Source of the DNA: an uncultured Christensenellaceae bacterium | GTDB taxonomy: Bacteria; Bacillota; Clostridia; Christensenellales; DTU072 | NCBI GenBank assembly: GCA_964480195.1 | Contig: CAYZOJ010000002.1 | Span: forward strand, 1 to 58,667 | DNA length: 58,667 nt | Direction: 5' to 3' | Part shown: piece by piece, positions 35,761 through 58,667 of the stretch | Layout of the letters: the number at the start of each line of letters is the position of its first letter | How positions within the stretch are numbered: the stretch's first letter is position 1 | Made by a program: the position numbers and the translations under genes | Notes under the pieces: model-generated | The model's input: only the letters and a program-made list of their open reading frames with translations | Database searches by the model: none | What the model was told of the DNA's origin: nothing

Positions 35761-35762
35761 AA

Positions 35763-36602: not shown

Positions 36603-36624
36603 TTTAATTTTGTTCGGAGGCTAT

Positions 36625-37953: not shown

Positions 37954-37963
37954 AGGAGAGCAT

Positions 37964-38770: not shown

Positions 38771-38820
38771 GGGCGGGTGCGAGGCGCGCGAAGGCGCCGA
38801 GCGGTTAAATAAAAGTAAAT

Positions 38821-38852
38821 AGTCGGCGTTTTCGGACGCCGACTTTATTTTT
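38821..38852 (+). terminator. Strong terminator closing the 4-gene operon, upstream of the giant gene
   Basis: AGTCGGCGT-TTTCGG-ACGCCGACT followed by TTATTTTTT. Confidence 0.8.
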
Positions 38853-39012
38853 TCACTTAAACTTCATAAAAATTTCTTTATACTTCACGGGGGAACGGGT
38901 TTCCACAACATATTGCGGTTTTCGGGTTCGAGGTACCCAATTTGTACCGCCCGATGTGTAGGTTGTGTGAACGTTACATTAAAATGCGCGTATAAAATAT
39001 TATAAAAGACTA

Positions 39013-39041
39013 TTGACAAAAAAATGCCGTCGTCGTAAAAT
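39013..39041 (+). promoter_or_regulatory. Candidate sigma-A promoter of the giant gene
   Basis: Consensus TTGACA (39013..39018), exactly 17 nt, TAAAAT (39036..39041). Lies about 115 nt upstream of the ATG. Confidence 0.6.
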
Positions 39042-39141
39042 AATTGCAGAGCGGAGCCGAGAAGTCGGTTCCGTTTTGAAATTTATTATTACGCGCGTAA
39101 TACGCCGACGCGTAAAACGCCCGTAAACTCCACCACCTCAC

Positions 39142-39147
39142 AAGGAG
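39142..39147 (+). promoter_or_regulatory. Shine-Dalgarno sequence of the giant gene
   Basis: AAGGAG, 7 nt before ATG 39155. Confidence 0.7.
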
Positions 39148-39154
39148 AAACACA

Positions 39155-39229
39155 ATGAAAAAAGGTTTGATTTACAAGCTGGTGCTAGTGATTTTGATAG
39201 CCTCGCTTGCTCTTGTTCTCTTCGCTTGC
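39155..39229 (+). other. Lipoprotein signal peptide with lipobox L-F-A-C (Cys25) of the giant protein
   Basis: MKKGLIYK (basic n-region), LVLVILIASLALVL (h-region), FAC (lipobox), followed by SPREESPTDSD. Confidence 0.8.
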
Positions 39230-42200
39230 TCGCCGAGAGAAGAAAGTCCGACCGATTCCGACGTCATAAGCGGTAACGATTCCGAAGTTGTCGAAGAAAC
39301 GCGCCTCAGGGAGCGTATCAAAGACGATGACGCGAACAAGCTTATACAGACGGGCGTTGACAACAACCTCGAATACTACTCCGCTTCCGATAATCCGGAA
39401 TGGTACATAATCGACATGACGATGGAGTATGAATCCGAGTATTTCTGGCTTGACTCCGAAGAGCTCGAAGACACGAGTTCGGCGTTCCAAATGGAACTCA
39501 AGGCGAATTTCAATCTTAAAGAGAATTCCAAGAGCCAGTTGTACTTGCAGGTTCGTAACGCGAACAGACAACCCGTATTCTGTGTTTACTACGCTTCCGG
39601 CTATACGTATGTAGTCGTCGGAACGCAAAAATACTATACGCCGGAACTCAACTTTACAGAGGTGGGTAAGTTGGTTTACGGAGCGTTGGCAGGTACCGAT
39701 CTCAATTTGGTACAAGCATTGGGCGGTCTTATGTCGGGCGGTTCGACCGGCCTCGAATCTCTCTTAGGTAGCTATGCGAGCTTGCTTACCTTTGTCCCGT
39801 CCCTTATTTACCCTACGGGCAAAACAAACTCTTATTCGACAGTTTACAATTACGACGCCGTATCCGGCAAATATCTCAACCAAGACGTAAGCAGAACGAT
39901 TAAACTCAACGACTTGCTCAATATGCTTTCGGGTAGCGGTATTTCCATTCCCGGCGTATTCTCGATATCTTTCGGAACGATCTGGGACCTTGTCGGACTC
40001 AACCTCGACCCCGTACTCGGACAGTTCCTCGGCTTCACTTTTGAAGATCTCGGCAACAAAGATTGGCCCAAGATGAACGCGTATCTTACCGCGCGCACGG
40101 AACTCGAAACCTTTACCAAGACGGACGACAACGGAATCGAATCCGTGGTTCAGGATTACGTTATGAAGGGTATCGGCATCGAGATCGGAACCACCGGCGA
40201 CGTCGAGCAAACGCGTGAAAAATACGCGGGCTACACGCCTTCCGATATGGCTTCGGGCGAAAAGGTTGAAGAATACAGCATCAATATCGGTCTTACCCCC
40301 ATAATGATGTATGCAAGCGACGAGCCTTTGAGTATCAACTTCGGCGGACTCGGACTTAACGAAAGCGGACGTAAAGACACTTATACCGAAGGCGGTCTCG
40401 GCAACATAGCTCTCGGAGCTACAATGTACGTCGAAAACGACGCCAACGGCAAGATAACCCTCAACTCTATTTTGGGCGAAGCATTCGATTTGAACCTCGG
40501 CGCTCTCGGCGATATGGCAATAGATTTCCCGTACGCCGCTCGTTACGCACTCGGTCTTGACGTAAAAGTCGCTCTCGACTTCTTCGACGCTCAAAAAACT
40601 CAACTCGAATTGACGATATCGTTTAACGATACGCCTCTCATCCGCGCGTTTATAGACGGCACCGACTTGTATCTCAACTTCGACGATATGCAAGCGTATT
40701 CGGGAGCCGTAATCCCCAAACTCAAACTCAGCGGTTTCAGCATAAACGGTATGCTCGGAGGCATACTCGAATCGGCAAGACCGTATCTCGACCCGAACTA
40801 TACTGCGTCTACAATTCAAAATATGTCTTCGTCCGCACGTAACGAAGAGGGCGACGGCACCGAAGAAGGCTCGTCCGTAGACGTCATGGCAATAATCAAG
40901 GTAGTCCTCGACAACCTCGTATTGCCGGGAAGAGGCGACTACCGCGTAGACGCAAACGGCGAAATCGAACGCGACGCGGACGGCAACCCCGTTCCCAACG
41001 ATTGGGTAATATCCCTTAATCTCGACAACAAAGCGTTGACCGAGATATTCGGCATGATTACTCCCGTAAACGGCGATTTGGGCGAAGATCTTTGCATAAA
41101 CCTCTCGTTCGTTCAACAGCTCGAGTTCCTCAGCACGATAGCGCTTAACGTCGATATAACCGATTCCGTAAGACTCGGACTTACGTTCGACAATATCTCC
41201 TACCTCAGCGAACCCGACTGGGATAACTACGAAATGATCGACACCGCGGAAAAACGCGAAGCGTACACCGATATGTCGATATTCAAGACCGGCGAAGACT
41301 ACACCTACGTCAACACCAAGTACAGCGTGTTTATGCAAGGTTCGGTAAATCTCGGTATGAACCAGTCTACCGAAGAGGGTATCGACCTCGGCGGACTCAT
41401 CGGACAGTTCATCGACGGATTGTTGCTTTCCATCAACATCGAAAGAGGCAAGGACCTCAAATTCGAGTACAGATTGGAAGCTAATACCAACCTCCTCGAC
41501 TTATCGACGACAACCCTCAAACTCAGCGTATTCCACACCGATCCTCTTACCAAGAAGGAAACCGTGTACATACGCATATTCTATATGGGCACGGACGATA
41601 CGTTATATATCGACCTCAAAGACCTCAAACTTCTTTCCGACCAAATCAACGGTTTGAGTTCGCTCGGCGACCTGCCTCGTCTTAAATACGAAAATCTCGG
41701 TTTGAAAGACATGCTCCAAGGTCTTGACATAGCCGGCGCGATAAGCGGAATCGTTACGAACGGCGGGCAAAACGCTCCGCGTTCTCTGACGGTTGACACG
41801 TCCGACCCCGATTTCTTGGCCAAAACGCGCGACTCCATAGTCGGATTGCTTTACGCATTCAATACGATTGGCGGTTACGAAGGATTCCTCGGCAATCCCG
41901 CCGAAAGCATCGTCAACGCGTTTAACGCGCTTTACGGCGAAGAGGGCGACGGTTCAGAGGGCGACGGCTCCGAAGGCACCGACGACGGCGGTATCGACAT
42001 TATGGCGATAGTGGCGGCGGCACTCGAAGGCGTTACGATAGACGATATAGCGGGAACACTCTCGATTAACGTCGCGGCGAACGTTTTGAGCGCGGTTATG
42101 ACCATTCTCCTCGCTCCCGTCGACGAGTTCGGTAATCCCGCGACAATAGATATGCCTCTCGTACACGCATATGTCCAACTCAAGTTCATCAATTTCGATT

Positions 42201-45200
42201 TCGATACCGAAGAGCTTCCCGAAGACGGCTATGCGACGATATTCCTTGCCATTCGCGACAGCGGTGACGAAAATCTCGACGCGGTTTACCTCAAAGTCGA
42301 TTTAATCAAGGACCTCGGCGTGCGCGTAGGACATCTCAACCTCTACTCCGACATTTCCGAAACGAACTATACCGGTTCGTTCGAAACGATACAGGAGTTC
42401 CTCGACGGTCTTACCATAGGTCTTCGTATGAAGGGTCATTTCGACTTGACCGTTCAAAACGAGCCTCAATATAAGGTAGACGACTCCGGCGAATACATCC
42501 TCGACGAAAACGGCAATAAGATACCTCTCCTCGACGAAGAGGGCAATATCATATACAAGAAAATCGAAGAGTATACCAACGATTATCTCAACGGAATGCT
42601 TTCGGGTCTTATTTCGGGACTCGGTCTCAAGATAAACACCGCGGACTTTGGCGTTGGCATAGGATTTGAACTCGTTGCCAAGATTTCTCTCGCGGGCGCA
42701 TTGAAGATAGACGGCTCCGAAGCGGCGGATCTCATGGAAGTCTTGCTCGGAAGCTCCGAAATAATGGTTCGTCTTTACGACAGCAGAGAAGAGGACAACC
42801 CCTCGATTGTAGCTATCTACCTTAAAGACGGCAACGTATACGTCGATCTTTCTTACTTCGAAATGCCCAGCATAGGCATAACGGACATTTCCAAGCTCAT
42901 CGACGATATCGGCGATCTTACCGGCTCGAACGCCGCCGACGCGGAAAAGGCTAAGACCGCTCCCGCAAACCTCCTCCACCTCGACAGAGTGGCTCAATAC
43001 GCCAACACCGCAAATCCCGAAGCCGTCGCATTGCAGTTGATGCTCTCGCCCGACGCTTTGACGATTAACCTTACCAAAGACGCGATAGCGAGCCTTATAG
43101 GCTTACTCTTGAATACCGAACTTCCGATTGAAATACAGGATACCAACCTCGAACTCGGATACGGCGACGACGGTATCACGCTCGAACTCGATACCGGTGT
43201 CGAAATATTCAACCTCTCTATGGGCGCAAACGACCTCTTCTTAGCCGTTACGCCCGAAGACCTTGAAAGCCTCGAATTCGAAGTGAACATTCCGTCCGAC
43301 GTAGACTTCTATATGACCGAAGACGGTATGCCGTTAAGCGTATACCTCGAACTCGGCGGTTACCTTGCGATATACAGCGAACCTCTCGAAGATCAAGACG
43401 CCAACATCATCGACTTGGCTCCGGCGCTCAGCGGTATTTTACCCGGTGTGGAACTCAGTGCGCTCATAGAGTTCTTGGGTCTTGTGGACAGCTCGCTGTT
43501 CTTCGATATACGCGCAAGCGTCAATATCAACGAAATAGTTAACATCGTCAATAACGGATTCGATTTTGCCGGAATCGAGCAGACGGCACTCGCAATAACC
43601 TTTAAGACTTACGCGAGCAACGACCCGGGCGATGTGGACGCCAACGGCGAACGCAACAAGAGAAACGTCATCGAACTCTATTATATCGACGGCGACATTT
43701 ACGCATATATGGATACGACGATGATAGAACTTCATCGTATCTACATCCCCGACGCCAACGAAATTCTTGCAGACCTCATCAAGAGCCTTACCGGCGACGA
43801 CGAAATCGTACCCGATGAAGGTCAATCCGAAAGTGACGAGTCCGAAAACGAAACCGCAGTGGCGGTAGAGTACTATCTCGATCTCGTTCTCGGCAAGAAC
43901 GGACTTGCAATCAACATCTCCAAAGCATTCCTTATCGGTGTATTGAACGTCCTCGGACTCGATATATCTTCTTATCTCCAAAGCCTCGACTTCGAAGCGA
44001 GCGTTTCTTTGGATACTCGTCCTCTCGGCGCGGATATCACCCTTAAACTCCGCGATATCGGCACTGACGGCGTAGATGATCCCGATACGGATAACCCCAA
44101 CGACGGCAACTTCGTAAGTATGTCTGTCGGCTTGAACAAGTTAAAGCTCATGCTCGACACCGTTATAACGCTTTCCGAAGAAGAACGCGCCAACTACAGC
44201 CAGGTTATGAATATCGACACGATAGGCGTATCCTTGGGCGGTGCCGCTAAATTCGAAATCGAAGTTCCCGCAGGCGAAGAGGGCGAAGTTTCCGACGAAG
44301 AAACGGGTGCCACCGGCAACGTCCGTTCGCTCACGTTCATAATCAACGAACTTAAAGACATTCTCAAAGAGAATGCGGAAAAAGAAAAGCTCACCTGGAT
44401 ACGCGACGCGTCCATCGGTAAATACGATACCGAAACGGTTAAGTATTCCGAAATGTCCGACGCGCGTCTAAGCGAAATTTACGATTCCGACGTAACCGTT
44501 AAAGACTATACTCAGCTCCTCAACTTCGGTCTTATTCTCGAAGTCATCGGCGATACTTTGGACGGCAAATCCAAGTTCGGCGGTGAAGTATTCTATGAGC
44601 TCGAAGCGATTTTGGATATAACCGACATCTCGAACCTCAAAGCGTCGTTGTTCTTAAGCTCTTCCCAAAAGGCAGAGGATAGGGGCGATATCCTTTGGGT
44701 AAGCATAATGGGCGTTTACGACGAAGTAACGGGCGAATACGACATCAACGTGTTTGCGGATCTTACCAAACTCTTTAACGAAGGTCTTGTAATCAACGAC
44801 GTCATTCGCGTGAACAACTTCTCCGCGTTCTCGGAATATATGGATAGATTTACGAAGGTTACCGCGGGCGCGCAAGCTTCCTATAACGCGAGTATGCCTT
44901 TGAACTCTACCAACAACCTCTTGGAGCTCCCGCACAACGAAGCGGGCGAAGTCGTTCCGAGCATACTTACCGGCGCAAGCATAGTATTGGCGATAACTTC
45001 CGACGCAAGCAAATACGGCGTTCCTTACGAGGCACCCATTGCGTTGGTAGCGCCTTCCGCGGCAATCTACTCTCTCGTAGACTCATTACTCGGCGGTAAC
45101 GACGCGTCTTACGAAGTAGCCGTTGACGAAGAAAAGATCAGCACTTACGTAAACGACGGCATATACTCCGCAGACGAGTATTATTACGCACTCCGCGGAA

Positions 45201-48200
45201 TTTACGCGACGCATATCGAAACGCTTGCGACCGCACGCGTCAACGGAGAAATATCCGAAGATACTTACGTTACTGTAAATCACCTCTGGTCCTCCAATGT
45301 TAAAGACGCTCTCGACGAGCTTTACGCAAAGGGCGACAGCGTAATAGCGCAGTACGACGCAACCGTCGCGACGTTTGTTAACGAATACGCAAAGATATTC
45401 ACCGACGCGGACGTTGCGGGAAGAATTCTCCCCAATGCGACGGAGGAAGAACTCAGCGTACTCGAAACCGCTTACAACGCGTTCGACGCGTTCTATACCG
45501 AAAAACTTAAACCCGCCGTTGCGGAACCCAAAGACCCCGACGACGAGCAAAAGACCAACCTTATTAAAGGTTTGCGCGCGATTCGTATAGAGGAAATCGA
45601 AAGTCAAAAAGACTCGATGTCGGTTGCCAATTACGAATATCTCCTCCACGGTATGCTTACCACCCTCGAGGGCGAGCAAGTCGATCCCGCGGATTACGGT
45701 AACATAGACGTTTCCACGTTCTTCGGCGTACACTCTCCGTCCTTACTCCTTGAAATCGGCGCGGCGTCGATTCCCAATGCGGACGGCGGTACTCGTTCGG
45801 CATTCCTCCTCGTCAATATGAGTCTTGCCGAACTCCTTACCGTTCAATTCGAAATAGGCAGTATCAACGTTACGATATCCCCCGACGATTCGTACTATAC
45901 CGGTACCGTTGACGAATACGGCACGTTGCAAGGCGGATTGCTCAACAACAAGAACTATTACTGGCTCAATCCCGACAAGATGGCGGATCAGCACATAGTC
46001 ATTTCGTTGAACGGCGAACTCGACTTCGATGCGGAAGACACCTCCGACGGCTCCGATACGGAAGCCAAGACGGCAATCGACCTTACCGAAATCATACAAA
46101 CGCTCTTGACGGAAGCAGACTTCGGCGCGATGATTCGCAACGCGGGTCTTAATCCCACAAAGCTGACATATGAATTGAGCGTCAACGTCAACTTGCACGA
46201 TATTCTCAAAACGATAGCGACGGGCGACATTTACTGGTTGCTCGTAAGAAGCGAACTGTTGCTCTCTCTCGGATTCAGCGGTGAACGCGAATATTACGAC
46301 GAAGAAACGGGCGCATATCTCGGCACTCACGACAGCACCGAATATATATCCTTATATTACGTAGACGGCGACGCCTATATCGACGGCTCCGTAATCGGCG
46401 TACAGCGCGTTAGAGTAAACACCGCGCTTGCAAACCTCTTCGACTTTATCGGAATGGGCGACATCCGCGATTACTACAAGCCCACCCCCGAAGAATACGA
46501 GAAGACAGACGCGTCGTTCGACCCGCAAAATTACCCGCTCAACGCGCCTTTGACGGGTACGGAATTGTTACCGTACGTACGTCTTGCAATGGGCAATCAG
46601 ACGGGTATCGTTCTCGATATAATGAGCGAAGTTATATTCTGCGTGCTCTCCGGTCTTGACCTCGGCGAAAGCTTCCCCGTCGAAGACCTCGGCGAAACGG
46701 TAAGAAATACCCTTAACGGAGATCTTAACTTCCAACTCGGAATAATGTCTAAACTCGGCTTGCTTGCGGATAAGTGGCCGTCAGAGAACAGAGATATCCT
46801 CGCGCTTGCGTTGAACGTAGGTAACTACACGTTGGGCATGAGGCTCTCCGAGCTCAGCCTCGACCTTATGGACGAAACGGAAACGGCTACCGTATCCCTT
46901 AAACCCAAAGAAATGAACCTCGACAGTTACGAGCTCAGCGAAAACCTCGATAACGTTTACGCTGAACTCTCTCTCGACTTCAATCTCGACGGCACCAACG
47001 GCACCAAGTTCAACTTGGACGAAACCGTAGACGGCATACTCTCCCGCTTCGGAATCAACGACGACGGCTCCGTTAATAGCACGGTAGAAACCATAAGAGG
47101 ACTCGGACTGGAACCCATAATCCAGCTTTTGAGTACCCTAAGTAACCATTACACGCTCGAAATCAAAGGTAACATCAACCTTTCGGAAATCATCGACGAA
47201 AACACCTTCTACGATACGAACTTCTCGGTATATCTCCGTGACAGAGATACCCTCATCGACTATAGCGACGGTAACGGCGAAGTCTACAAGGAAGTATTCT
47301 CCGCTCACTATATCGACCGTGCGCTCTATATCAACGCCGAGTGCTTCAACATTCAGGCTGTACGTATAGACACGTTCTGGGATTTCGTAATGCACGACCT
47401 TAAAGACATCTACTTCCCCGAAACCGACGAAGAACCCGAAGAGGGCGACGGCGACGAAACGGAGGAAGTACAAAACGCCACGGGATTTGCCGGATACGAA
47501 AGCAAATCGGGATTCGATCCGCTTTCGCTCTTGCGTCAAGTCGCGAGCGGTGAAGCGAATAAGGTTGCCGCATACATCAATATTACGGCAAGCCCCGAAG
47601 GCTTTGCGCTAAGCATCGGAACCACGGTGTTGTTCGCGGTACTCCGCGCAATCGGCGGTGAGGCAATGGACTTCTCGAGCTATGTCGAGCCGATAGGCGA
47701 ACTTACCGTCGAAGCAGTACTCTTCGGACCCGAAGAGCTCTTAGGCTTGGGACTTACGTTCGAAGGATACGCGTTCAGCGGTGACGAAAGAATCAATACC
47801 GGTACCGAGGAAGAACCCGTTTATCAAAAAGACGGCAGTAACATTTCGATAAGCTTCGGTATCAGAAACGACTTCAAGGTTGCGTTCAACAACACTTGGC
47901 TTGCGGATAAATACTATATTAACCGCGACAAGTTCTACACGGGCGAATTTACGTCCGACGACGTAACCGTAAGCCACGTAACCGTAGATAACACGATTAG
48001 CGCGCCCGCATACGCGTATATCGACGACGGCAACGGCGGTTACGAAGCGATAGACTACACCGCAGTCGACCTTACCAACCCCGTAATAGGTCTTGAAACG
48101 GTAATTTACATCGACCTCGGCGCGGGCAAGATAACGGGCGACGGCGTAACCGGAACCGTCAGCAGAGAATATGACGAGAACGGCGAATTGTCGGGTATCC

Positions 48201-51200: not shown

Positions 51201-54200
51201 TCCAAGACAACATCGGAGAGCTTACCTTGCGTATCAAAGCCGACGTAACTCTTACAGCACTTGACGAGTGGAGCATTAACGCGATGATCCAACTCGTAAG
51301 GCTCAAAGAGGACGGCACATATGAAAACGGCGACGACGTCGACGAAGAAGTATTCGCGCTTTACGTACTCGGCTCTTTGAACAACGCTACGGGCTATGCC
51401 GAAAACGGGCTCCAAGTCTATATGACCATGAGCTCGATGGAGCAATACGGCTTGACGGGCATAATCCTCGACTCCTCGGTATTCGAGAAGTTCTTCAACC
51501 TGAACTTGAACGCCGTACTCGAGTCGTTAGGCGGAACGCTCGCCACGACGATGGACGGCTCCATTATCGCGATGCTCAACAGCCTCATGCAATCGGTAAA
51601 CGGTATTATCGGAAGCATCGGCGGTGACGCGTCGGAAGAAACCGATCCCGAAGGACCCAAGAGTGAAGCAAGCGTTTCGACAGGCGAGGGCACTTCGACC
51701 GAAGGCACCGAAGAAGAGAATCCCTACGCGCCCGACGACGGCGAAGGCGACGAAGACAACGTTGCGTGGTATGCGGGACTCTTTGACAGTATCCAATTCA
51801 CCAAGGGCGCGATTTCGATAGTCATAGCGCAGACGGCTGTACAGACGATACTCGACGAGTTGTTGACCTTCCCGTTCGACGAAAAACTCGGCGAACTCTC
51901 CTTCACGCTCGACAACTACGATAACTCTTTGAAACTCTCGTTCGGTACCGACTATCAAGAGCCTGTCGACATCAGCGACATCGACCTCGATAAGCTCAAG
52001 ATTACCGTCGGCGAAGACGCTGTCGTAAACGACGTCAATAACTACATCGAAGCTCTCGAACGCGACATATTGAAGGTAGCGTCGCCGTTCTTCCTTAGCG
52101 GTGTTACCGTCCAATACGATAACTATAGCGGAATGCTCAACGCAAGTTCGGCATACGTCGGCGACGTCAACAACGCCCAAGTTCTCGGCATTTCCGATAG
52201 CTACGTAAGATACCTCGTTTATGACGCCGAAACGATATTCGGTTCTACCGTAACGAGCCAATCCGAATTGACGCGCAAGCAATACGCGCTCGCGATAATT
52301 GAGGCGATTAACACCCGTCTTAAAGACAGATATACGCTTGTATCTTCCGATTCCGTCAACGGCATTTACGGATTCGAGAATCAAACGTTAAGAGCAAAAG
52401 TCGCGGTTAAACTCTCTGACGAAGACATCAACGTCGAGGGCAATCCTTATAAACAATATAAAGTAATAGTGGCTGTCGCATACGAAAGCTCGAAGCTCGA
52501 TTTGAGCACGGTAGAAGCCGACGTATTCGGCGGTAAACAAGTAAGCCTTACCACCGAAGAAATCGCCACCAACGAAATCAGAGAGCAATACGACGACGAC
52601 TTCCTCGAAGGCATCACCGTACCCGTCGACGACGGCAAGTCCGTTGCGCTCAAGGCGGAAAGCGTTTACGTACAGAAGTTCAAGCTTTATGCGGGACAAG
52701 AGTACGAAGTCGAAAATCCCGGCACGCGTAACGTCTTCTATTACGTATACAACCCGCTCGATTTCTACGATTACGAAGAAACCGGCGACAGATACTCCGA
52801 AATCGCGCTCAAAGAGAAGAAAGCTCTTGCGGAAAAACTCTTATTGGTTATCTCCGACTACTTCCACGAGGGCGAATACACCTGGTCCAAGAGCGCGGAC
52901 GGCGTACACGAACTCTATAAGAGCGACACGCGCTTCAACGTCGCTATCAAGGTTGTAGAAGAGAAGGAAGTCATCGGCGGAACCGAAAGGACTGTCGGTT
53001 ACAAGGTAATAATGGGCACTTCGAGCGACAAGAGTATGTTCAACGTGTATGTCAAGATACACGGACTCGACATCGGTCTCGGCGAAGGCAACATCTTCCA
53101 AGAAATGCCTCTCGGCGGAAAGCTCCGCGACGGCAAGACGGAATACACTATTATTAACGAAGCCGGTGAAGAAGAGATCGTCAAATACGATTATCTCGAC
53201 TACTTCGCAACTCAGTTCATGCCTCTTTCGGACTACAAGTGGGAGTTCGAACTCTACTCCGAACTCACCATCGACGATACCGTAGGCGGAATATTCGATA
53301 TGTCCGACCTTATGGTATTGGTAGGCGGGCTCATAGGCGGGGACATCGGCAATTCGATATCTCAAATCAACTTCGCGTTGCAACCGATAGACGACGTGGC
53401 AATCACGTTCGGTATCGCGGTTCGCGCGTACATTGACTTTGGCGACTTCACTCCCATGCGCTTCCAAGTTGAGCTCACCAACCAAGGTAAGACCGTACTC
53501 CTTCTTACCTACGTAGGCGGTTACGACGTTGACGAAAACGGCATTTACGAAAACAGCAAGCTCTATGTAGACCTCAGCGGTCTCGGATTCCCCTCGGTCA
53601 AACTCGAGCACATCCAGCTTGCCAAGATAGTTAAAGACCTTATGGGCGGTCTCAGCGGAGAAACCGAAGAGAACAAGCCCGAAAACGGCGCAGACAATGG
53701 CGAATCGGGAACCGTAAACGGCAATTCGGGAACCTCTACTCCCGCAAACGCCTCCGCTTCCGACGAACCCGAAAGAATTTACTTAAGCGATAAAGACATC
53801 GACTTCAAGATGTTGCTCTTGACGTTCGGCGAAGAGAATACGAGTATTGCGATAACCGGTGCTCTTCTCTGCTCGCTCATAGGCGCAATCGGTCAGAACG
53901 AAGTCATCTCTTCCGCTCTCGGCGGACTCGACATCGACATCCCGATGTTCCGTAACCTCCAAATCGGTTACTCCAAAGAAGACGGACTCGCGGGTATCAT
54001 CTTACGCCTTACCGACGACACGCCTTACGAAAAGGCAATGCGCATAGGCTTCAACTTCCGCAACGTAAGCGAAAGACCCGACGGATACGGTTCTTACACC
54101 AAGTTCTGGACGGGCGACGAGTCGTCGACCTCGATTGACCCGAGAGAAAATGTCGAAGGCGAAGTCGAAGACGGAATCGCTTACGAGAACATCGACGTTA

Positions 54201-57200
54201 TCACCCAAGTAGGTCTCGGACTCGAAGTCGAAGTTCGCGTACGTACCAAGGACACCGAAAAGTCTTCACAGCTTCTCGCACTCGAAACGTTACTCCAAAA
54301 ACTCCTCGCAAGCTCGGGAATGCTCCCGGACAGCGAAGGCGTCATCAACCTCGATGTACAGAACACAATGCTCGTGTTCACATTGGGACTTAACGTATAT
54401 ACCGACCTTTCCGACCTCACCAAGACCACGCTTGCGTTGAACTTGGGACTCTCCGGCGAAGATCTCCTTGCGATATACTTCCTCGGAAGCACCAACACCG
54501 TATACGCGGATCTCAGCGGACTCGGATTCTTCAAGGCGGCGATAAACGGTATTGACCTTATAGGCATACTCAACACCTTCCTTGGCGGATTCTTGGGCGA
54601 CGAGGGCTTGGAAGTCGGCAAGATGCTTGCAGGTCTTGTATCCGGCATAACGGGCGCTTCTCAAGCGTCGGTCAACGCGACGAGCACCAATTACGTATCG
54701 ACGTCCGAAACCGTCGAAGCTCCGCGTAACGCCGCAATCGACCTCGTAACGTCGACGGATAACCCGCTCCTCAAGATACTCATATCCAACGAAGAACTCA
54801 TCATCAACCCGAACGTGGCAATCCTTTCGAGCCTGCTCGGCGATTCGATGACTCTTCCCAAGATAACGGATATGCGTCTCGGCATCAACCTCTATCAAGG
54901 TTTCAACAACCTCAACATCAAGGTAAAACTCGACCACAAGGGCAACTATCTCAATATGGCTGTTCCGGAAGGCGGGTTGCAAATCGAAATAGGCAAGACC
55001 GCGGAACGCCTTAAACTCTACACCATAGGCGACGAATCCACTTACGGCGGTATCGTAGGTATCTCGATGGGTCTTGACTCGGCGGGATCGCTCTCCGCGG
55101 GTATTGACGCATTGACGCTCGCGCAGGGCATTTTGGACGTCATCGACCTTAAGAACTTTGCGATTTACCTCGAAAAGCGTAACGACTACTTCTTCATTCG
55201 TAACCTTGCTTACAAGGTAACGACGGGTAACTTCTCGTTCGACTATTTCGGAACCTCTTACAGCACCGGTCCTACCGTATTCTCGACTCAGTTCGATAAC
55301 AGATTCATCAACTCCAAGACCGGACTCGATCCGTACGACGACGCGTACGTATCCACCGGACAGCTCTTCAGCTTGTCGATAGGTTCTTGGGACGTAGGTC
55401 AATACGCAAAAGCGTACGAGCCGATATTCTTCGACAACGCGTACAGAAGACTTGCAATCTACGCGACCAAGGACGTTCGCAACGTAACCGACCTCGAGAT
55501 AAGACAGCTTACGCAAGTAGGTAACGTCGAGTCTTACGCAGATCAGACAGACTGGGAGCCGATGGGTCTTAACGCGTACATTAAAGACAACGTCTTGAAG
55601 CTCTCGCTTGACAACATCGTCGTCATCGACTTGAGCGGACTTATTCAGCAGATTTTGAGTTGGATTATTTCCGCTGTCGGTAACGCTATCGGCGGTGGCG
55701 TCGCGGGAACCATAATCAATGCTGTTTGGGGCGTTGCGGGCGACGCTGTATCCACGTGGATTGCAGACCTCCTCGGCGACTTCAGCATAACGATAGGCGG
55801 TGTCGAATACGGACACTACGGCAACCCGCTCAAAGTAGGTAAGCTCGTCACCGACATACTCTCGGGCGGAGATCCGACATACGGCTTCGGCGTTGTAAAT
55901 ATGTATCTCCCGGAATTCCTGCCTTCGCTCATTTCGAGCCTCAGGGCAAGTTCGTTCGAAGATACCAACAGCTACGGCTCTATGTACGGTAACGTCAACC
56001 ACTACAACAAGGCGACCGGCGAGTACGAACCCGTCGCGGGCGCTAAGGTTGTTCTCGGAAACGACCAATACGTAACGTACACCGACTCGGACGGCGATTA
56101 CAGCTTCATCAACGTTGCAATCGGCACGTACAACGTAAAGATTACTTGCGACGGATACAACACCTTACCGAGAGTCGGTCAGGCAAGCCCGCAAGCGACC
56201 GTTTACGCGTACTACGACAAGCCCGCAATGGAAGCGAACTACACCCTCGAAGAGTACGAAACCGGCACTTGGACAAACGTAACCCTCAAGGGTCAAGTCA
56301 AGTACGAGTCCTCTAAGGGCGTATACACGATTCTCAAGGGCGTGGATGTCGAAATCGAGAACCACGGTGTTTGGATTACAGTCGGAACCACCGATTCCGA
56401 AGGTAACTATTCGGGAACGCTTACGACCAACCTCGTAGGTTCCTACCACAATATGAGAGTTGCAAGCGGTATCGCTCACATCGGAACGATAACTTCGTCG
56501 GTGACCCTCAAATACACCGCGGACGGTTTGTCGATGGTAAAAGACTACACCGTCAACATTACCTATAACATTCCGTCGCCCGACGCTACGGTAACCGCAA
56601 CGCTCAAGACGTTGGATCTTACCGAAACGCTTCTCAACGGACAAGCGTCGACCGTATACAATAACTACGCGCGTCGCGATACCGAAGATACGTCTTTCGA
56701 CTCCACAGCCGTTTACAGTTATCAGAACGCCGGCACCATCGTCGGTAGCAAGGTAGACAAAGACCTCGTTCAAAACAAACTCGGCGGAACGGCAGTCGCC
56801 GCATACACCGAAAACGATACCGTTTACAACGTATACGAGTTCGAAACGGTAGCCGCGATGAAGAGCGGTATCTCCGCATTCGTAACCGCGATTAAGGAAT
56901 TGTCCTACACCCAAAACGAGACAAAATACGCGCTCTACGACGTAACCGAAGAAATCGGCTCGCTCTACTACCGCGCGACTTCTTATCAAGAACGCAACAT
57001 TACCGAAATTCGCGGATTCGCGTCGCAATACAAAGACGGCAAGTTCTGCTATCGCGTAATCGTTGCTCGCAGACAAGCGACTCTCGTCGCGGTCGACTTC
57101 TCCGCACTCGAAGTATGGCTCGAAAGGGACGGCAGAACGATACGTAATTCCGACTCGTTCTCGGGAACCAACCTCAACGTCATCAGCATCTACAAGGACG

Positions 57201-58667
57201 ACGCAGTCGAAGAAACTCGTACCGCATACGCTCAACAAACGGCGAGAAACTACTTAACCACCGTCATCGGCGCAAGCGATAACGAAGTTCAGGGCGGTGA
57301 AGCGTACAACGCCAACACAGGTAAGATAACCATAACCAAGCTTGCAAAAGCCGATTACATCGTAAAGGTTCGCGCAACGGGTTATGAAAACGTAGAAATC
57401 GGCACGGCGAAGATTACCGATAAGGATTACTACTGGGATCTCGGCGAAATCATTCTCGAACCCAAGCGCGTACCCGCGTGGATAGCCGAAGAAAACGAGG
57501 GCACCAAGATGCTCCAAGGCTTGCGCGTACGTTTGGGCGCAGACATCCTCGACGAGTCCAGTACCGGTCATAACTCCGCGGAAGACGCGGGCTACACTGA
57601 GGACGGCGTACCGCTCAGCAAGTACTCCTTCTTGACGAGCCTCGGCGAAGGCACTCTTAACGCACTTCTCCATACCGCTACCGGTCAGGCGAGCAGTGCG
57701 ATAGGTAACGCTATAGGTAACGCGATAGGCGGTACCATCGGAAGCCTCGTAGGCAGTGCGGCAAGCAGTATACTCGGAAGCTTGTTCGGTAACATCGGCG
57801 GTGTGGACAGCACTTCGCAGTTTCTCGACGCAACCGGCAAACCGATATTCGTTCCGTGGACCAACTACGTCAACGGATACGAAGAGGGCGATAAGAACTC
57901 CTCCGACACCGTAACGTATATCGAAGCGTGGATTTCTTCCGACCTTATCAGCGATATAGTATTCTTAATCAACAACCTCCTTATGGACTACACCGGTTAC
58001 GGCAAAGTTTCTAAGGATCAGCGTTACACCTCGGCAGACCTCTCCAAGATACCCGACGGCACGGATGACGACGATGTATTGAAGCTCAACTTCAAGGGCG
58101 AATTCAGCGAAGAGCTCGATCACCTCTGGGGTAACTACATCTACGATACCCAATCCGACTACACCGAAATCTTGTACGAATCCGGCGGTAGATTCATAGG
58201 CAATATAGTATCGTTCTTGCTCGGCTCCTTCATATCCCTCTCCGATACGTGGATGAACATCATCCAGATGGTTCTCTACGAAATCGACGCGGTTATGGAT
58301 ATTCTCGACCAAGTAACCAGACTCCTTTCGCACATCTTCCCGTTCACCACGGGCTACTCGATGATTATTGATAAGGATCTCCCGGGCAGCCCGCTCGCAC
58401 AACAGACGGTCTACTCGACGGTTTGGGAACACGAAACGCAGTACGGCTATATGGATATGGAAAAGAAGACCGTTCGTCCCAACGCCATAACCAGCTCGTC
58501 GCGCGAATTGTACGAACCCAAGTTTGACGAAAGCATACTCGGCACCGTCAATGCGGGTCAAAGCCAATATAACTATAAGATTAACGACGTAACCGTTTCG
58601 TCCGATAACCCGCTCGGCAAGATAGTCGGACAGCGCTCGACCGACGTCAAAGACCTCGTACAAAACG
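39155..58667 (+). CDS. Giant open reading frame, 3'-partial: at least 6,504 codons, running off the window end. Acidic, modular, lipobox-anchored surface protein of unrecognised family
   Basis: Not in the supplied ORF track. I read the frame (pos-39155) mod 3 = 0 codon by codon from ATG 39155 to 58667 and met no TAA/TAG/TGA. The length is 19,513 nt, i.e. 6,504 codons plus 1 nt. The track lists no plus-strand ORF in this frame anywhere in 19.5 kb, which is what a finder that needs a closing stop would produce. All long minus-strand ORFs here share the exact mirror frame, meaning (end-39155) mod 3 = 2 for 39764..41338, 42302..42997, 45086..45733, 48965..49975, 52841..53611, 54290..56068, 56165..57238 and 57965..58663. 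The N-terminus is MKKGLIYKLVLVILIASLALVLFAC. Confidence 0.92.
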   Translation, partial: MKKGLIYKLVLVILIASLALVLFACSPREESPTDSDVISGNDSEVVEETRLRERIKDDDANKLIQTGVDNNLEYYSASDNPEWYIIDMTMEYESEYFWLDSEELEDTSSAFQMELKANFNLKENSKSQLYLQVRNANRQPVFCVYYASGYTYVVVGTQKYYTPELNFTEVGKLVYGALAGTDLNLVQALGGLMSGGSTGLESLLGSYASLLTFVPSLIYPTGKTNSYSTVYNYDAVSGKYLNQDVSRTIKLNDLLNMLSGSGISIPGVFSISFGTIWDLVGLNLDPVLGQFLGFTFEDLGNKDWPKMNAYLTARTELETFTKTDDNGIESVVQDYVMKGIGIEIGTTGDVEQTREKYAGYTPSDMASGEKVEEYSINIGLTPIMMYASDEPLSINFGGLGLNESGRKDTYTEGGLGNIALGATMYVENDANGKITLNSILGEAFDLNLGALGDMAIDFPYAARYALGLDVKVALDFFDAQKTQLELTISFNDTPLIRAFIDGTDLYLNFDDMQAYSGAVIPKLKLSGFSINGMLGGILESARPYLDPNYTASTIQNMSSSARNEEGDGTEEGSSVDVMAIIKVVLDNLVLPGRGDYRVDANGEIERDADGNPVPNDWVISLNLDNKALTEIFGMITPVNGDLGEDLCINLSFVQQLEFLSTIALNVDITDSVRLGLTFDNISYLSEPDWDNYEMIDTAEKREAYTDMSIFKTGEDYTYVNTKYSVFMQGSVNLGMNQSTEEGIDLGGLIGQFIDGLLLSINIERGKDLKFEYRLEANTNLLDLSTTTLKLSVFHTDPLTKKETVYIRIFYMGTDDTLYIDLKDLKLLSDQINGLSSLGDLPRLKYENLGLKDMLQGLDIAGAISGIVTNGGQNAPRSLTVDTSDPDFLAKTRDSIVGLLYAFNTIGGYEGFLGNPAESIVNAFNALYGEEGDGSEGDGSEGTDDGGIDIMAIVAAALEGVTIDDIAGTLSINVAANVLSAVMTILLAPVDEFGNPATIDMPLVHAYVQLKFINFDFDTEELPEDGYATIFLAIRDSGDENLDAVYLKVDLIKDLGVRVGHLNLYSDISETNYTGSFETIQEFLDGLTIGLRMKGHFDLTVQNEPQYKVDDSGEYILDENGNKIPLLDEEGNIIYKKIEEYTNDYLNGMLSGLISGLGLKINTADFGVGIGFELVAKISLAGALKIDGSEAADLMEVLLGSSEIMVRLYDSREEDNPSIVAIYLKDGNVYVDLSYFEMPSIGITDISKLIDDIGDLTGSNAADAEKAKTAPANLLHLDRVAQYANTANPEAVALQLMLSPDALTINLTKDAIASLIGLLLNTELPIEIQDTNLELGYGDDGITLELDTGVEIFNLSMGANDLFLAVTPEDLESLEFEVNIPSDVDFYMTEDGMPLSVYLELGGYLAIYSEPLEDQDANIIDLAPALSGILPGVELSALIEFLGLVDSSLFFDIRASVNINEIVNIVNNGFDFAGIEQTALAITFKTYASNDPGDVDANGERNKRNVIELYYIDGDIYAYMDTTMIELHRIYIPDANEILADLIKSLTGDDEIVPDEGQSESDESENETAVAVEYYLDLVLGKNGLAINISKAFLIGVLNVLGLDISSYLQSLDFEASVSLDTRPLGADITLKLRDIGTDGVDDPDTDNPNDGNFVSMSVGLNKLKLMLDTVITLSEEERANYSQVMNIDTIGVSLGGAAKFEIEVPAGEEGEVSDEETGATGNVRSLTFIINELKDILKENAEKEKLTWIRDASIGKYDTETVKYSEMSDARLSEIYDSDVTVKDYTQLLNFGLILEVIGDTLDGKSKFGGEVFYELEAILDITDISNLKASLFLSSSQKAEDRGDILWVSIMGVYDEVTGEYDINVFADLTKLFNEGLVINDVIRVNNFSAFSEYMDRFTKVTAGAQASYNASMPLNSTNNLLELPHNEAGEVVPSILTGASIVLAITSDASKYGVPYEAPIALVAPSAAIYSLVDSLLGGNDASYEVAVDEEKISTYVNDGIYSADEYYYALRGIYATHIETLATARVNGEISEDTYVTVNHLWSSNVKDALDELYAKGDSVIAQYDATVATFVNEYAKIFTDADVAGRILPNATEEELSVLETAYNAFDAFYTEKLKPAVAEPKDPDDEQKTNLIKGLRAIRIEEIESQKDSMSVANYEYLLHGMLTTLEGEQVDPADYGNIDVSTFFGVHSPSLLLEIGAASIPNADGGTRSAFLLVNMSLAELLTVQFEIGSINVTISPDDSYYTGTVDEYGTLQGGLLNNKNYYWLNPDKMADQHIVISLNGELDFDAEDTSDGSDTEAKTAIDLTEIIQTLLTEADFGAMIRNAGLNPTKLTYELSVNVNLHDILKTIATGDIYWLLVRSELLLSLGFSGEREYYDEETGAYLGTHDSTEYISLYYVDGDAYIDGSVIGVQRVRVNTALANLFDFIGMGDIRDYYKPTPEEYEKTDASFDPQNYPLNAPLTGTELLPYVRLAMGNQTGIVLDIMSEVIFCVLSGLDLGESFPVEDLGETVRNTLNGDLNFQLGIMSKLGLLADKWPSENRDILALALNVGNYTLGMRLSELSLDLMDETETATVSLKPKEMNLDSYELSENLDNVYAELSLDFNLDGTNGTKFNLDETVDGILSRFGINDDGSVNSTVETIRGLGLEPIIQLLSTLSNHYTLEIKGNINLSEIIDENTFYDTNFSVYLRDRDTLIDYSDGNGEVYKEVFSAHYIDRALYINAECFNIQAVRIDTFWDFVMHDLKDIYFPETDEEPEEGDGDETEEVQNATGFAGYESKSGFDPLSLLRQVASGEANKVAAYINITASPEGFALSIGTTVLFAVLRAIGGEAMDFSSYVEPIGELTVEAVLFGPEELLGLGLTFEGYAFSGDERINTGTEEEPVYQKDGSNISISFGIRNDFKVAFNNTWLADKYYINRDKFYTGEFTSDDVTVSHVTVDNTISAPAYAYIDDGNGGYEAIDYTAVDLTNPVIGLETVIYIDLGAGKITGDGVTGTVSREYDENGELSGIHYSGYDLNKEPLTSLLAGILDATLAILLEIDSNQSVTYELELLVNFPLRNFRGIEVQLTLSGLYNEKYYRQLFRANLHNSNLYVDLTALNGPKFSVEAVLETILGEKEFEDDVISGLIDSIFGGGSSDEETPQNASGAQNASSAKTDTPINIDLGVERLIRGVMTHGLALYVTEAAVNSILRMFSMSDLEIFETLLVEIGLAAKKNSFIFALDLEATAEYYDENNTSQSSKVIDLGLGIDGLRLNFEGFPNTELLLPQTANYMRAAEVNTLTLSTAIEIEVGVNGGTLNLNGLYQEVLREDGAIAGLLGDDDSFDSLFGNNGLMTALPQLVMLGDVGDTLVFQIDGMVYIKGGLEGIIDNLQLRLEIYSKKCREKFDIVFTYYKNQLYGDFSSIGMGKVFIDDVNFLLDWFGGLGGSDEETEAQSASLTETERVANAFAKQFPTWAQALGLNNASSDENLVGIVKILLGNDDGLLITVTFEMIDVILKMVGLDIGLEDYLAGVLNPSATVGVIPGPAYEIGIHLDTASSTIPNWSWDEEAQEYRQDSEPKKDENGEYVENNGGLDLALRLMGGDTSIGIENESLVYTPYGIQSTLTPLISEEERSAYKMFNEVALTLGTNFALQFDLSDGKIQLNALLDTIFTILGMEMPEDYETNIIFNGGNETLYCEINLRVGLDLAKLLSANSEDITHAITLELIVQYTIIDNVTDEVYMNQKLIELYMFDDIIYAGLNIMDTELGVKVPDMGLSATLRGLMEKLFIVDKVEDDVTTGGGEEGGNPQNASSNPIKDMYESTKDTVGDTPVGNLMTPMIYLNSQGFALMLTKTLLIECIDAVIDIAGGAIGTQDGEPIILDREQLEFIAEQILDYVTLGFYFDPDEEGNMSIKLNLTKEAGEEQIEETKEWYDSVGYSITLSLFHDSIMTVSTETYDERLDYLRYDEEHVRYYDNCLDTRNIAWRVNLGIDLSIGTDIQQYILNWSSLFQNEMDEDGNVTGAAFYIQALQDNIGELTLRIKADVTLTALDEWSINAMIQLVRLKEDGTYENGDDVDEEVFALYVLGSLNNATGYAENGLQVYMTMSSMEQYGLTGIILDSSVFEKFFNLNLNAVLESLGGTLATTMDGSIIAMLNSLMQSVNGIIGSIGGDASEETDPEGPKSEASVSTGEGTSTEGTEEENPYAPDDGEGDEDNVAWYAGLFDSIQFTKGAISIVIAQTAVQTILDELLTFPFDEKLGELSFTLDNYDNSLKLSFGTDYQEPVDISDIDLDKLKITVGEDAVVNDVNNYIEALERDILKVASPFFLSGVTVQYDNYSGMLNASSAYVGDVNNAQVLGISDSYVRYLVYDAETIFGSTVTSQSELTRKQYALAIIEAINTRLKDRYTLVSSDSVNGIYGFENQTLRAKVAVKLSDEDINVEGNPYKQYKVIVAVAYESSKLDLSTVEADVFGGKQVSLTTEEIATNEIREQYDDDFLEGITVPVDDGKSVALKAESVYVQKFKLYAGQEYEVENPGTRNVFYYVYNPLDFYDYEETGDRYSEIALKEKKALAEKLLLVISDYFHEGEYTWSKSADGVHELYKSDTRFNVAIKVVEEKEVIGGTERTVGYKVIMGTSSDKSMFNVYVKIHGLDIGLGEGNIFQEMPLGGKLRDGKTEYTIINEAGEEEIVKYDYLDYFATQFMPLSDYKWEFELYSELTIDDTVGGIFDMSDLMVLVGGLIGGDIGNSISQINFALQPIDDVAITFGIAVRAYIDFGDFTPMRFQVELTNQGKTVLLLTYVGGYDVDENGIYENSKLYVDLSGLGFPSVKLEHIQLAKIVKDLMGGLSGETEENKPENGADNGESGTVNGNSGTSTPANASASDEPERIYLSDKDIDFKMLLLTFGEENTSIAITGALLCSLIGAIGQNEVISSALGGLDIDIPMFRNLQIGYSKEDGLAGIILRLTDDTPYEKAMRIGFNFRNVSERPDGYGSYTKFWTGDESSTSIDPRENVEGEVEDGIAYENIDVITQVGLGLEVEVRVRTKDTEKSSQLLALETLLQKLLASSGMLPDSEGVINLDVQNTMLVFTLGLNVYTDLSDLTKTTLALNLGLSGEDLLAIYFLGSTNTVYADLSGLGFFKAAINGIDLIGILNTFLGGFLGDEGLEVGKMLAGLVSGITGASQASVNATSTNYVSTSETVEAPRNAAIDLVTSTDNPLLKILISNEELIINPNVAILSSLLGDSMTLPKITDMRLGINLYQGFNNLNIKVKLDHKGNYLNMAVPEGGLQIEIGKTAERLKLYTIGDESTYGGIVGISMGLDSAGSLSAGIDALTLAQGILDVIDLKNFAIYLEKRNDYFFIRNLAYKVTTGNFSFDYFGTSYSTGPTVFSTQFDNRFINSKTGLDPYDDAYVSTGQLFSLSIGSWDVGQYAKAYEPIFFDNAYRRLAIYATKDVRNVTDLEIRQLTQVGNVESYADQTDWEPMGLNAYIKDNVLKLSLDNIVVIDLSGLIQQILSWIISAVGNAIGGGVAGTIINAVWGVAGDAVSTWIADLLGDFSITIGGVEYGHYGNPLKVGKLVTDILSGGDPTYGFGVVNMYLPEFLPSLISSLRASSFEDTNSYGSMYGNVNHYNKATGEYEPVAGAKVVLGNDQYVTYTDSDGDYSFINVAIGTYNVKITCDGYNTLPRVGQASPQATVYAYYDKPAMEANYTLEEYETGTWTNVTLKGQVKYESSKGVYTILKGVDVEIENHGVWITVGTTDSEGNYSGTLTTNLVGSYHNMRVASGIAHIGTITSSVTLKYTADGLSMVKDYTVNITYNIPSPDATVTATLKTLDLTETLLNGQASTVYNNYARRDTEDTSFDSTAVYSYQNAGTIVGSKVDKDLVQNKLGGTAVAAYTENDTVYNVYEFETVAAMKSGISAFVTAIKELSYTQNETKYALYDVTEEIGSLYYRATSYQERNITEIRGFASQYKDGKFCYRVIVARRQATLVAVDFSALEVWLERDGRTIRNSDSFSGTNLNVISIYKDDAVEETRTAYAQQTARNYLTTVIGASDNEVQGGEAYNANTGKITITKLAKADYIVKVRATGYENVEIGTAKITDKDYYWDLGEIILEPKRVPAWIAEENEGTKMLQGLRVRLGADILDESSTGHNSAEDAGYTEDGVPLSKYSFLTSLGEGTLNALLHTATGQASSAIGNAIGNAIGGTIGSLVGSAASSILGSLFGNIGGVDSTSQFLDATGKPIFVPWTNYVNGYEEGDKNSSDTVTYIEAWISSDLISDIVFLINNLLMDYTGYGKVSKDQRYTSADLSKIPDGTDDDDVLKLNFKGEFSEELDHLWGNYIYDTQSDYTEILYESGGRFIGNIVSFLLGSFISLSDTWMNIIQMVLYEIDAVMDILDQVTRLLSHIFPFTTGYSMIIDKDLPGSPLAQQTVYSTVWEHETQYGYMDMEKKTVRPNAITSSSRELYEPKFDESILGTVNAGQSQYNYKINDVTVSSDNPLGKIVGQRSTDVKDLVQN
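40637..54529 (+). repeat. About 13 divergent protein-level modules (300-400 aa each) inside the giant ORF, each ending in a conserved two-strand hairpin motif of the type [hydrophobic]-x-(L/I/F)-Y-(Y/F/I/V)-x-(D/G)-(G/D/N)-x-(L/V/I)-Y-(V/I/A)-(D/G)-(L/F)
   Basis: Motif instances: 40637..40684 LIRAFIDGTDLYLNFD; 41564..41617 VYIRIFYMGTDDTLYIDL; 42806..42850 IVAIYLKDGNVYVDL; 43667..43714 VIELYYIDGDIYAYMD; 44690..44764 ILWVSIMGVYDEVTGEYDINVFADL; 46343..46387 YISLYYVDGDAYIDG; 47294..47341 VFSAHYIDRALYINAE; 48413..48457 LFRANLHNSNLYVDL; 49331..49372 IVFTYYKNQLYGDF; 50348..50395 LIELYMFDDIIYAGLN; 51350..51430 VFALYVLGSLNNATGYAENGLQVYMTM; 53495..53590 VLLLTYVGGYDVDENGIYENSKLYVDLSGLGF; 54464..54529 LLAIYFLGSTNTVYADLSGLGF. 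There is no nucleotide-level repeat identity. Confidence 0.65.
55658..55780 (+). other. Glycine-zipper-like hydrophobic segment 1 in the giant protein
   Basis: SWIISAVGNAIGGGVAGTIINAVWGVAGDAVSTWIADLLGD: small-xxx-small periodicity, Gly/Ala-rich and otherwise apolar. Confidence 0.45.
55982..56161 (+). other. CarboxypepD_reg-like (prealbumin-fold) domain 1 in the giant protein
   Basis: MYGNVNHYNKATGEYEPVAGAKVVLGNDQYVTYTDSDGDYSFINVAIGTYNVKITCDGYN fits the classic pattern G.V......P..GA.V.L.....T.TD.DG.Y.F.....G.Y.....GY. Confidence 0.7.
56285..56425 (+). other. CarboxypepD_reg-like domain 2 (weaker)
   Basis: LKGQVKYESSKGVYTILKGVDVEIENHGVWITVGTTDSEGNYSGTLT. Confidence 0.45.
57263..57463 (+). 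other. CarboxypepD_reg-like domain 3 (weaker)
   Basis: VIGASDNEVQGGEAYNANTGKITITKLAKADYIVKVRATGYENVEIGTAKITDKDYYWDLGEIILEP. Confidence 0.45.
57683..57802 (+). other. Glycine-zipper-like segment 2 in the giant protein
   Basis: GQASSAIGNAIGNAIGGTIGSLVGSAASSILGSLFGNIGG: repeated (A/G)IGN and GxxxG/S spacing. Confidence 0.5.

Follow-up and report, generated by a model that had tools for sequence, protein, structure and literature searches.

The minus-strand open reading frames (ORFs) at 39-58 kb of the analysed DNA, a stretch of 58,667 nt that we call the window, are almost certainly statistical shadows of one real plus-strand gene and not genes of their own. The real gene is a giant one. Its plus frame, beginning with the ATG at 39155, has no stop through 39155..58666 (6,504 codons) and runs out of the window at its end. 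The first-pass annotation had already read the minus-strand ORFs as mirror images of this gene, and that interpretation is supported by the phase of the ORFs, the codon usage of the sense frame, shuffled null models, coding potential and comparison with orthologues. We infer that the minus-strand ORFs are not expressed as protein. This kind of artefact of codon bias has been known since the 1990s, and the case described here is an ordinary one.

The giant gene and its relatives

The giant protein starts with MKK followed by a hydrophobic run and then by L-F-A-C25, the features by which a lipoprotein is recognized (by inspection only), and the string 'ALFACSPR' at this signal is kept in 10 of 10 orthologues. 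The product is a predicted cell-surface lipoprotein of 9,519 residues, very large, acidic and poor in Cys, with the predicted lipoprotein signal at its N-terminus. CarboxypepD_reg was the sole Pfam match above cut-off in the window part of the protein, and in the part past the window Big_4 was matched below threshold only. No match to the giant protein was found by a PDB sequence search, and an Atlas feature search gave a top score of 0.83, which is under any useful level. For about 9,000 residues outside CarboxypepD_reg, neither Pfam nor the PDB sequences nor the Atlas gave a match. Residues 830-1270 were modelled with AlphaFold2 from an alignment of 10 orthologues, but at a mean pLDDT of 41.5 the model was unusable, and a regular-expression search of the protein for a module-end hairpin gave 6 sites only. 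Rfam at gathering thresholds detected zero RNA families on both strands of 38700..58667, and a tandem-repeat scan found a single 32-nt array. The protein resembles giant surface lipoproteins and adhesin-like proteins of gut Clostridia in its lipoprotein signal, its size, its acidic and Cys-poor composition and its CarboxypepD_reg/Ig-like domain, and differs from them in the long part that has no further match.

The sense frame has a GC content of 0.54, 0.36 and 0.63 at codon positions 1, 2 and 3, while the remaining plus frames contain 213-327 stops each. An off-frame ORF of 104 aa on the same strand (52644..52958) lies within the giant gene and is presumably a chance ORF. The constant phase of the minus-strand ORFs had been taken as an argument against frameshifts in the giant gene, and within the window this holds: the frame is open for all 6,504 codons, and the gene continues past the window end.

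A scaffold gap of 100 N follows directly after the window (contig G000:C2:58668-58767), and the sequence resumes at 58768-67869 of the 68,027-nt contig. Both flanks of the gap carry an identical overlap of 55 nt. The overlap looks like an assembler k-mer overlap, and the gap is spurious. Joining the flanks at the overlap preserved the frame and gave a gene of 9,519 codons with its stop within the contig. The joined gene is collinear with the orthologue of 9,409 aa in genome G014, with no indel at the join. Past the gap, seven of the eight minus-strand ORFs of at least 100 aa are again in register with the sense frame, the longest being 680 aa.

Whole-genome searches detected the giant gene, with intact frames of 9,409-9,688 aa, in 19 of the 21 genomes of its genus. 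Relatives that match more weakly (7,047-8,488 aa, at about 30% identity) are present in three other genera of the family, and none was found by the same kind of search in 16 other families of the order. The relatives are animal-gut metagenome-assembled genomes titled Candidatus Stercoripulliclostridium sp. or Clostridia bacterium. These searches show a giant gene conserved within one genus of gut Clostridia with small genomes. Four genes upstream of it (window 32794..38770), encoding a 988-aa transglutaminase-core protein, a DUF4380-like protein, a ROK protein and a PIG-L protein, are arranged in the same order, with unchanged sizes, in a relative whose giant gene is 45% identical (L001 3085..9178).

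The closest relative is G014, with 61-62% identity in the giant gene. Its contig (G014:C3; L019, CAVIFU010000003.1) carries the public title 'Ruminococcus bicirculans', while the genome search puts G014 in the same genus as the genome studied here. Given this placement and the genus-restricted giant gene, the title is probably a mislabel. ORFs of 1,800 aa or more number 14 in the genome of the window (G000, 1.63 Mb) and add up to 46,216 codons or about 8.5% of the assembly, among them C44:267-12626, C1:16951-28383, C26:253-11604, C17:19852-30624 and C9:17826-26936.

Antisense ORFs and the codon usage of the sense strand

From 39155 to the window end there are 20 minus-strand ORFs of at least 100 aa (Table 1), and 19 of them are codon-aligned antisense to the giant gene, with (end-39155) mod 3 = 2. 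The chance of at least 19 of 20 ORFs in one given phase is P = 1.2e-8. The first-pass annotation had stated this alignment for every long minus-strand ORF, which is right except for 54181..54648, an out-of-phase ORF. The four ORFs that it gave as examples (524, 592, 357 and 336 aa) are all present with those lengths. Its count of about 40 fake genes agrees with the 41 minus-strand ORFs of at least 60 aa, but only 23 of the 41 are codon-aligned, 17 being in phase 1 and one in phase 0. The aligned shadows of at least 100 aa amount to 4,600 aa and lie over 71% of the 6,504 sense codons, compared with 31% of sense codons genome-wide.

Table 1. Features of the giant gene and the minus-strand ORFs of at least 100 aa opposite to it (positions in the window)
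Feature	Position	Strand	Remark or evidence
Shine-Dalgarno-like AAGGAG	39142..39147	+	7 nt 5' of giant-gene ATG; read from sequence
Giant gene, window part	39155..58667	+	6,504 codons of a 9,519-codon (predicted) lipoprotein gene
Lipoprotein-type signal peptide (putative), lipobox L-F-A-C (Cys25)	39155..39229	+	translation, by inspection only
Sense Leu TTA	39764..39766	+	reverse complement TAA terminates the 524-aa shadow; one of 39 mirror-stop codons
CarboxypepD_reg (PF13620) domain	56027..56167	+	residues 5625-5671; 41.4 bits against cut-off of 32.3
Shadow, 176 aa, codon-aligned	39185..39715	-	LLR -0.13 against sense 0.58
Shadow, 524 aa, codon-aligned	39764..41338	-	7-36 antisense stops in orthologues; no Pfam above cut-off; in public collection
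Shadow, 231 aa, codon-aligned	42302..42997	-	ORF scan, orthologue stops, hexamer score
Shadow, 180 aa, codon-aligned	43439..43981	-	ORF scan, orthologue stops, hexamer score, G014 comparison
Shadow, 215 aa, codon-aligned	45086..45733	-	sole shadow with SD-like motif upstream
Shadow, 195 aa, codon-aligned	45743..46330	-	ORF scan, orthologue stops, hexamer score
Shadow, 133 aa, codon-aligned	47138..47539	-	ORF scan, orthologue stops, hexamer score
Shadow, 153 aa, codon-aligned	47741..48202	-	ORF scan, hexamer score
Shadow, 121 aa, codon-aligned	48233..48598	-	ORF scan, hexamer score
Shadow, 336 aa, codon-aligned	48965..49975	-	ORF scan, Pfam, hexamer score; in public collection
Shadow, 222 aa, codon-aligned	50282..50950	-	ORF scan, Pfam, hexamer score
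Shadow, 150 aa, codon-aligned	50993..51445	-	ORF scan, hexamer score
Shadow, 285 aa, codon-aligned	51527..52384	-	ORF scan, Pfam, hexamer score; in public collection
Shadow, 103 aa, codon-aligned	52388..52699	-	ORF scan, hexamer score
Shadow, 256 aa, codon-aligned	52841..53611	-	ORF scan, Pfam, hexamer score; in public collection
Out-of-phase antisense ORF, 155 aa, phase 1	54181..54648	-	LLR -0.49; no Pfam match; non-coding
Shadow, 592 aa, codon-aligned, longest in window	54290..56068	-	exhaustive phmmer: 3 matches, all miscalled shadows; in public collection
Shadow, 357 aa, codon-aligned	56165..57238	-	ORF scan, Pfam, hexamer score; in public collection
Shadow, 139 aa, codon-aligned	57254..57673	-	ORF scan, hexamer score
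Shadow, 232 aa, codon-aligned, open at window end	57965..58663	-	ORF scan, Pfam, hexamer score

A stop in the codon-aligned antisense frame requires TTA, CTA or TCA on the sense strand, and the sense frame is almost free of these mirror-stop codons, as had been noted before: there are 29 TTA, 5 CTA and 5 TCA, that is 39 of 6,504 codons, against 64, 60 and 44 predicted by position-specific base composition. Leu is mostly encoded by CTC (377), CTT (158) and TTG (131), and Ser by AGC (132), TCC (131) and TCG (121), again in agreement with the first reading of the sequence. A detail of that reading was wrong: the TTA that ends the 524-aa ORF had been placed at 39761..39763, where the codon is CTC, and the true TTA is the next codon (Table 1). 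The relative synonymous codon usage (RSCU) of TTA, CTA and TCA is 0.64, 0.23 and 0.26 in the genome and 0.24, 0.05 and 0.05 in the giant gene. The genome disfavours the three codons and the giant gene does so more strongly, which makes antisense stops rare and leaves long runs open. The codon-aligned antisense runs are open for up to 624 codons, with about one stop per 167 codons. High GC is not the cause, since the genome has just 47% GC; the effect arises from particular codon preferences. The 28.6-kb length of the host gene explains why the shadows are so numerous (19 of at least 100 aa, and seven more past the gap).

The starts and the composition of the shadows can be read from the sense codons as well. 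Possible antisense starts come from 102 CAA, 31 CAC and 9 CAT codons. The 19 aligned shadows start with TTG (13), GTG (4) or ATG (2), the predominance of TTG being due to CAA outnumbering CAC and CAT together. V (1.9x), R (2.0x), F (1.6x) and E (1.3x) are over-represented in the antisense translations, and M, W, P and K are scarce. The translations had also been described as rich in Y and G, which are not enriched (1.1x and 1.0x). The composition mirrors the top sense codons, GAC, AAC and TAC giving Val, CTC and TTC giving Glu, GAA giving Phe and NCG giving Arg, and the shadows have no Trp because CCA is absent from the sense frame.

Ordinary genes of this genome are shadowed in the same way. 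Upstream of the giant gene, the minus-strand ORF 35790..36578 covers the plus-strand gene 35763..36602 in register almost from end to end, and a second gene, 37964..38770 (plus strand), has a near full-length in-register shadow at 37976..38641 (minus strand). These examples indicate that this genome is prone to the artefact in general. Elsewhere in it, the longest shadow has 970 aa and lies within a 1,265-aa gene on contig C28.

Per 1,000 codons, the genome has 14.8 mirror-stop codons, the giant gene 5.0 and its window part 6.0. With 17% of the genes in the genome at or under its density, the giant gene is no outlier. Over a genome-wide proxy gene set, the density per 1,000 drops with gene length, from 18.1 (150-300 aa) to 7.8 (2,000-5,000 aa), the GC content of third codon positions (GC3) climbs with gene length, and codon bias is stronger in longer genes.

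One could instead suppose that selection acts directly against antisense stops, for instance on behalf of an antisense function, and that the open frame is no by-product of codon preference: the giant gene has TTA, CTA and TCA 2.5 times less often than the genome average and far less often than positional base composition predicts. We considered this explanation and rejected it as hardly credible. Codons without any antisense-stop meaning are shunned equally in the giant gene (RSCU of CCA 0.0, CGA 0.02 and ACA 0.23), 17% of the genes in the genome have a density as low or lower, and the density declines smoothly with gene length and rising GC3 across the genome. Congeners of lower GC3 retain the gene and lose the open antisense frame.

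A comparison with the orthologues L003-L011 over the first ~3,000 codons of the giant gene shows a large split in codon usage within the genus: GC3 is 0.61-0.65 for this genome and G014, and 0.39-0.49 for eight congeners. TTA and CTA together encode 5-8% of Leu in this genome and G014 and 21-47% in the eight congeners. The antisense openness is lineage-specific, and the congeners of low GC3 have no long shadows.

Tests for coding in the antisense frame

Codon usage of the sense frame accounts for the number and length of the shadows. When the order of the sense codons was shuffled, 16.5 +/- 2.3 aligned ORFs of at least 100 aa were obtained (observed 19), the longest aligned ORF was 650 +/- 172 aa (observed 592), and the aligned ORFs covered 4,318 +/- 320 aa (observed 4,600). 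Synonymous resampling gave 11.2 aligned ORFs of at least 100 aa with genome-wide usage and 0.9 with uniform usage. The shuffles also yielded 4.4 +/- 1.8 ORFs like the out-of-phase one, the longest being 156 +/- 34 aa.

Coding potential was compared on both strands, as the first-pass annotation had proposed, with a hexamer model whose training set was 800 other long ORFs from the genome. The sense frame scored 0.82 bits/codon, against 0.44 +/- 0.24 for held-out genes, and the aligned antisense frame scored -0.08. The sense score was higher than the antisense score in 20 of 20 ORF spans, by at least 0.64 bits/codon in each.

For conservation, the first ~3,000 codons were aligned with nine orthologues. 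At the same columns, identity to the orthologues was 49-63% in the sense frame and 26-40% in the antisense frame. The differences fell on the third sense position at 0.55-0.65, on the first at 0.30-0.41 and on the second at 0.17-0.28. Antisense stops per 1,000 codons numbered 38-61 in eight congeners, 9.4 in G014 and 7.3 in this genome (aligned part). The columns of the 524-aa shadow contain 7-36 antisense stops in nine of nine orthologues. Against G014, sense identity exceeded antisense identity in each shadow span, and the stop counts fit the background rate. The spans 39185..39715 and 43439..43981 are stop-free in G014 too, with 1.7 stops expected in each.

The shadows had been described as having no domain and no SD sequence. 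None of 10 antisense ORFs searched against Pfam had a match above cut-off, the best being DUF7789 with 20.1 bits against 25, and an SD-like motif precedes 1 of 18 shadows compared with 61% of ATG-start genes. No conserved protein matches had been expected either. An exhaustive phmmer search of the 592-aa shadow against 1.8 billion representatives returned three (E = 1e-45, 3e-14 and 9e-7), all of which are themselves miscalled shadows and do not refute the interpretation. Each lies on an ENA metagenome scaffold and is codon-aligned opposite a fragment of a giant-gene homologue, and the frames opposite to them are 33-47% identical to the giant sense protein; as evidence of coding they were rejected. 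This search found no homologue of the 592-aa shadow that is independent of sense mirror images.

Truly translated genes embedded antisense in other genes have been published. They include two long overlapping genes in Pseudomonas aeruginosa (PMC8850804) and three in E. coli O157:H7 (PMC9927249), resting on ribosome profiling and evidence of purifying selection. The ORFs studied here are similar to those in being long and antisense within an annotated gene, and differ in that the antisense frame shows no constraint and is closed in orthologues. With such precedents, and with ORF lengths of up to 592 aa, two ORFs open also in the closest relative and an SD-like motif before 45086..45733, one or a few of the antisense ORFs might be thought to be young lineage-specific overlapping genes. 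This is very improbable. Sense codon usage fully accounts for the number and length of the ORFs, the antisense frame is less conserved than the sense frame in every span, and stops occur in G014 at the background rate and in other congeners at 2-36 per span. The hexamer score is about zero or lower, Pfam gave no family above cut-off, and 17 of the 19 starts are TTG or GTG. There is at most a very slight chance that 39185..39715 or 43439..43981 (open in G014), or 45086..45733 (with the SD-like motif), is a very young antisense gene restricted to the high-GC3 sub-lineage. Such a gene would have arisen on a frame opened by codon bias.

The shadow interpretation also agrees with Mir et al. (2012, PLoS One 7:e45103, PMC3454372), who explain long ORFs in frame -1 by codon bias with reference to Merino 1994 and Silke 1997. 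As in that account, the ORFs are codon-aligned to a real gene with stops only at sense TTA, CTA and TCA, and their lengths are reproduced by codon usage without conservation or coding signals. Compared with this description nothing essential differs here, though the numbers are large (19 + 7).

Shadows in public protein collections

The first-pass annotation had warned that fake genes could be called in place of the real one, and this has happened. A public collection of 15 billion proteins contains exact translations of six of the seven shadows tested (marked in Table 1), attributed to an NCBI contig of 68,027 nt, the length of this contig. A protein search over lengths of 3,577-11,382 aa found two foreign homologues of the giant gene only and no match to the giant protein itself. 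Ten other genes of this genome, five very long (2,588-4,119 aa) and five mid-size, served as a comparison, and none of their longest shadows (0 of 10) was in the collection. Compared with six of seven for the giant gene, it means that the calling of shadows is specific to the giant gene, for which its extreme length and the N gap are candidate causes.

The presence of these six minus-strand translations in the collection, together with the missing self-match of the giant protein, would fit the opposite reading, that the minus-strand ORFs are real and the long plus frame is accidental. The probability of this reading is negligible. An unbroken frame of 9,519 codons cannot be an accident where the other plus frames have hundreds of stops (213-327), the plus frame has an SD motif, an ATG start, a lipoprotein signal and a Pfam domain, and its coding potential is far higher. 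It is kept at full length across the genus and the minus-strand ORFs are not, and by this conservation pattern, seen in sequence comparison, we regard the reading as already refuted.

The same situation was observed on three metagenome scaffolds from ENA that carry homologues of the giant gene with GC3 of 0.65-0.68 (L012 2108..10210, L013 2076..9284 and L014 881..20292). The homologues on these scaffolds are overlapping open frames, which looks like frameshifts. Frames of 1,831-4,766 aa are uncalled there, and shorter pieces (681-1,217 aa) are called correctly. Over the uncalled frames 22 'genes' are annotated instead, and every one is a shadow in register.

The value of the finding is practical, for annotation hygiene, and it tells nothing new about coding. 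It means that giant genes in lineages with such codon bias can be replaced in databases by spurious hypothetical proteins, and that these shadow entries hide some of the largest bacterial proteins and seed fake 'families'.
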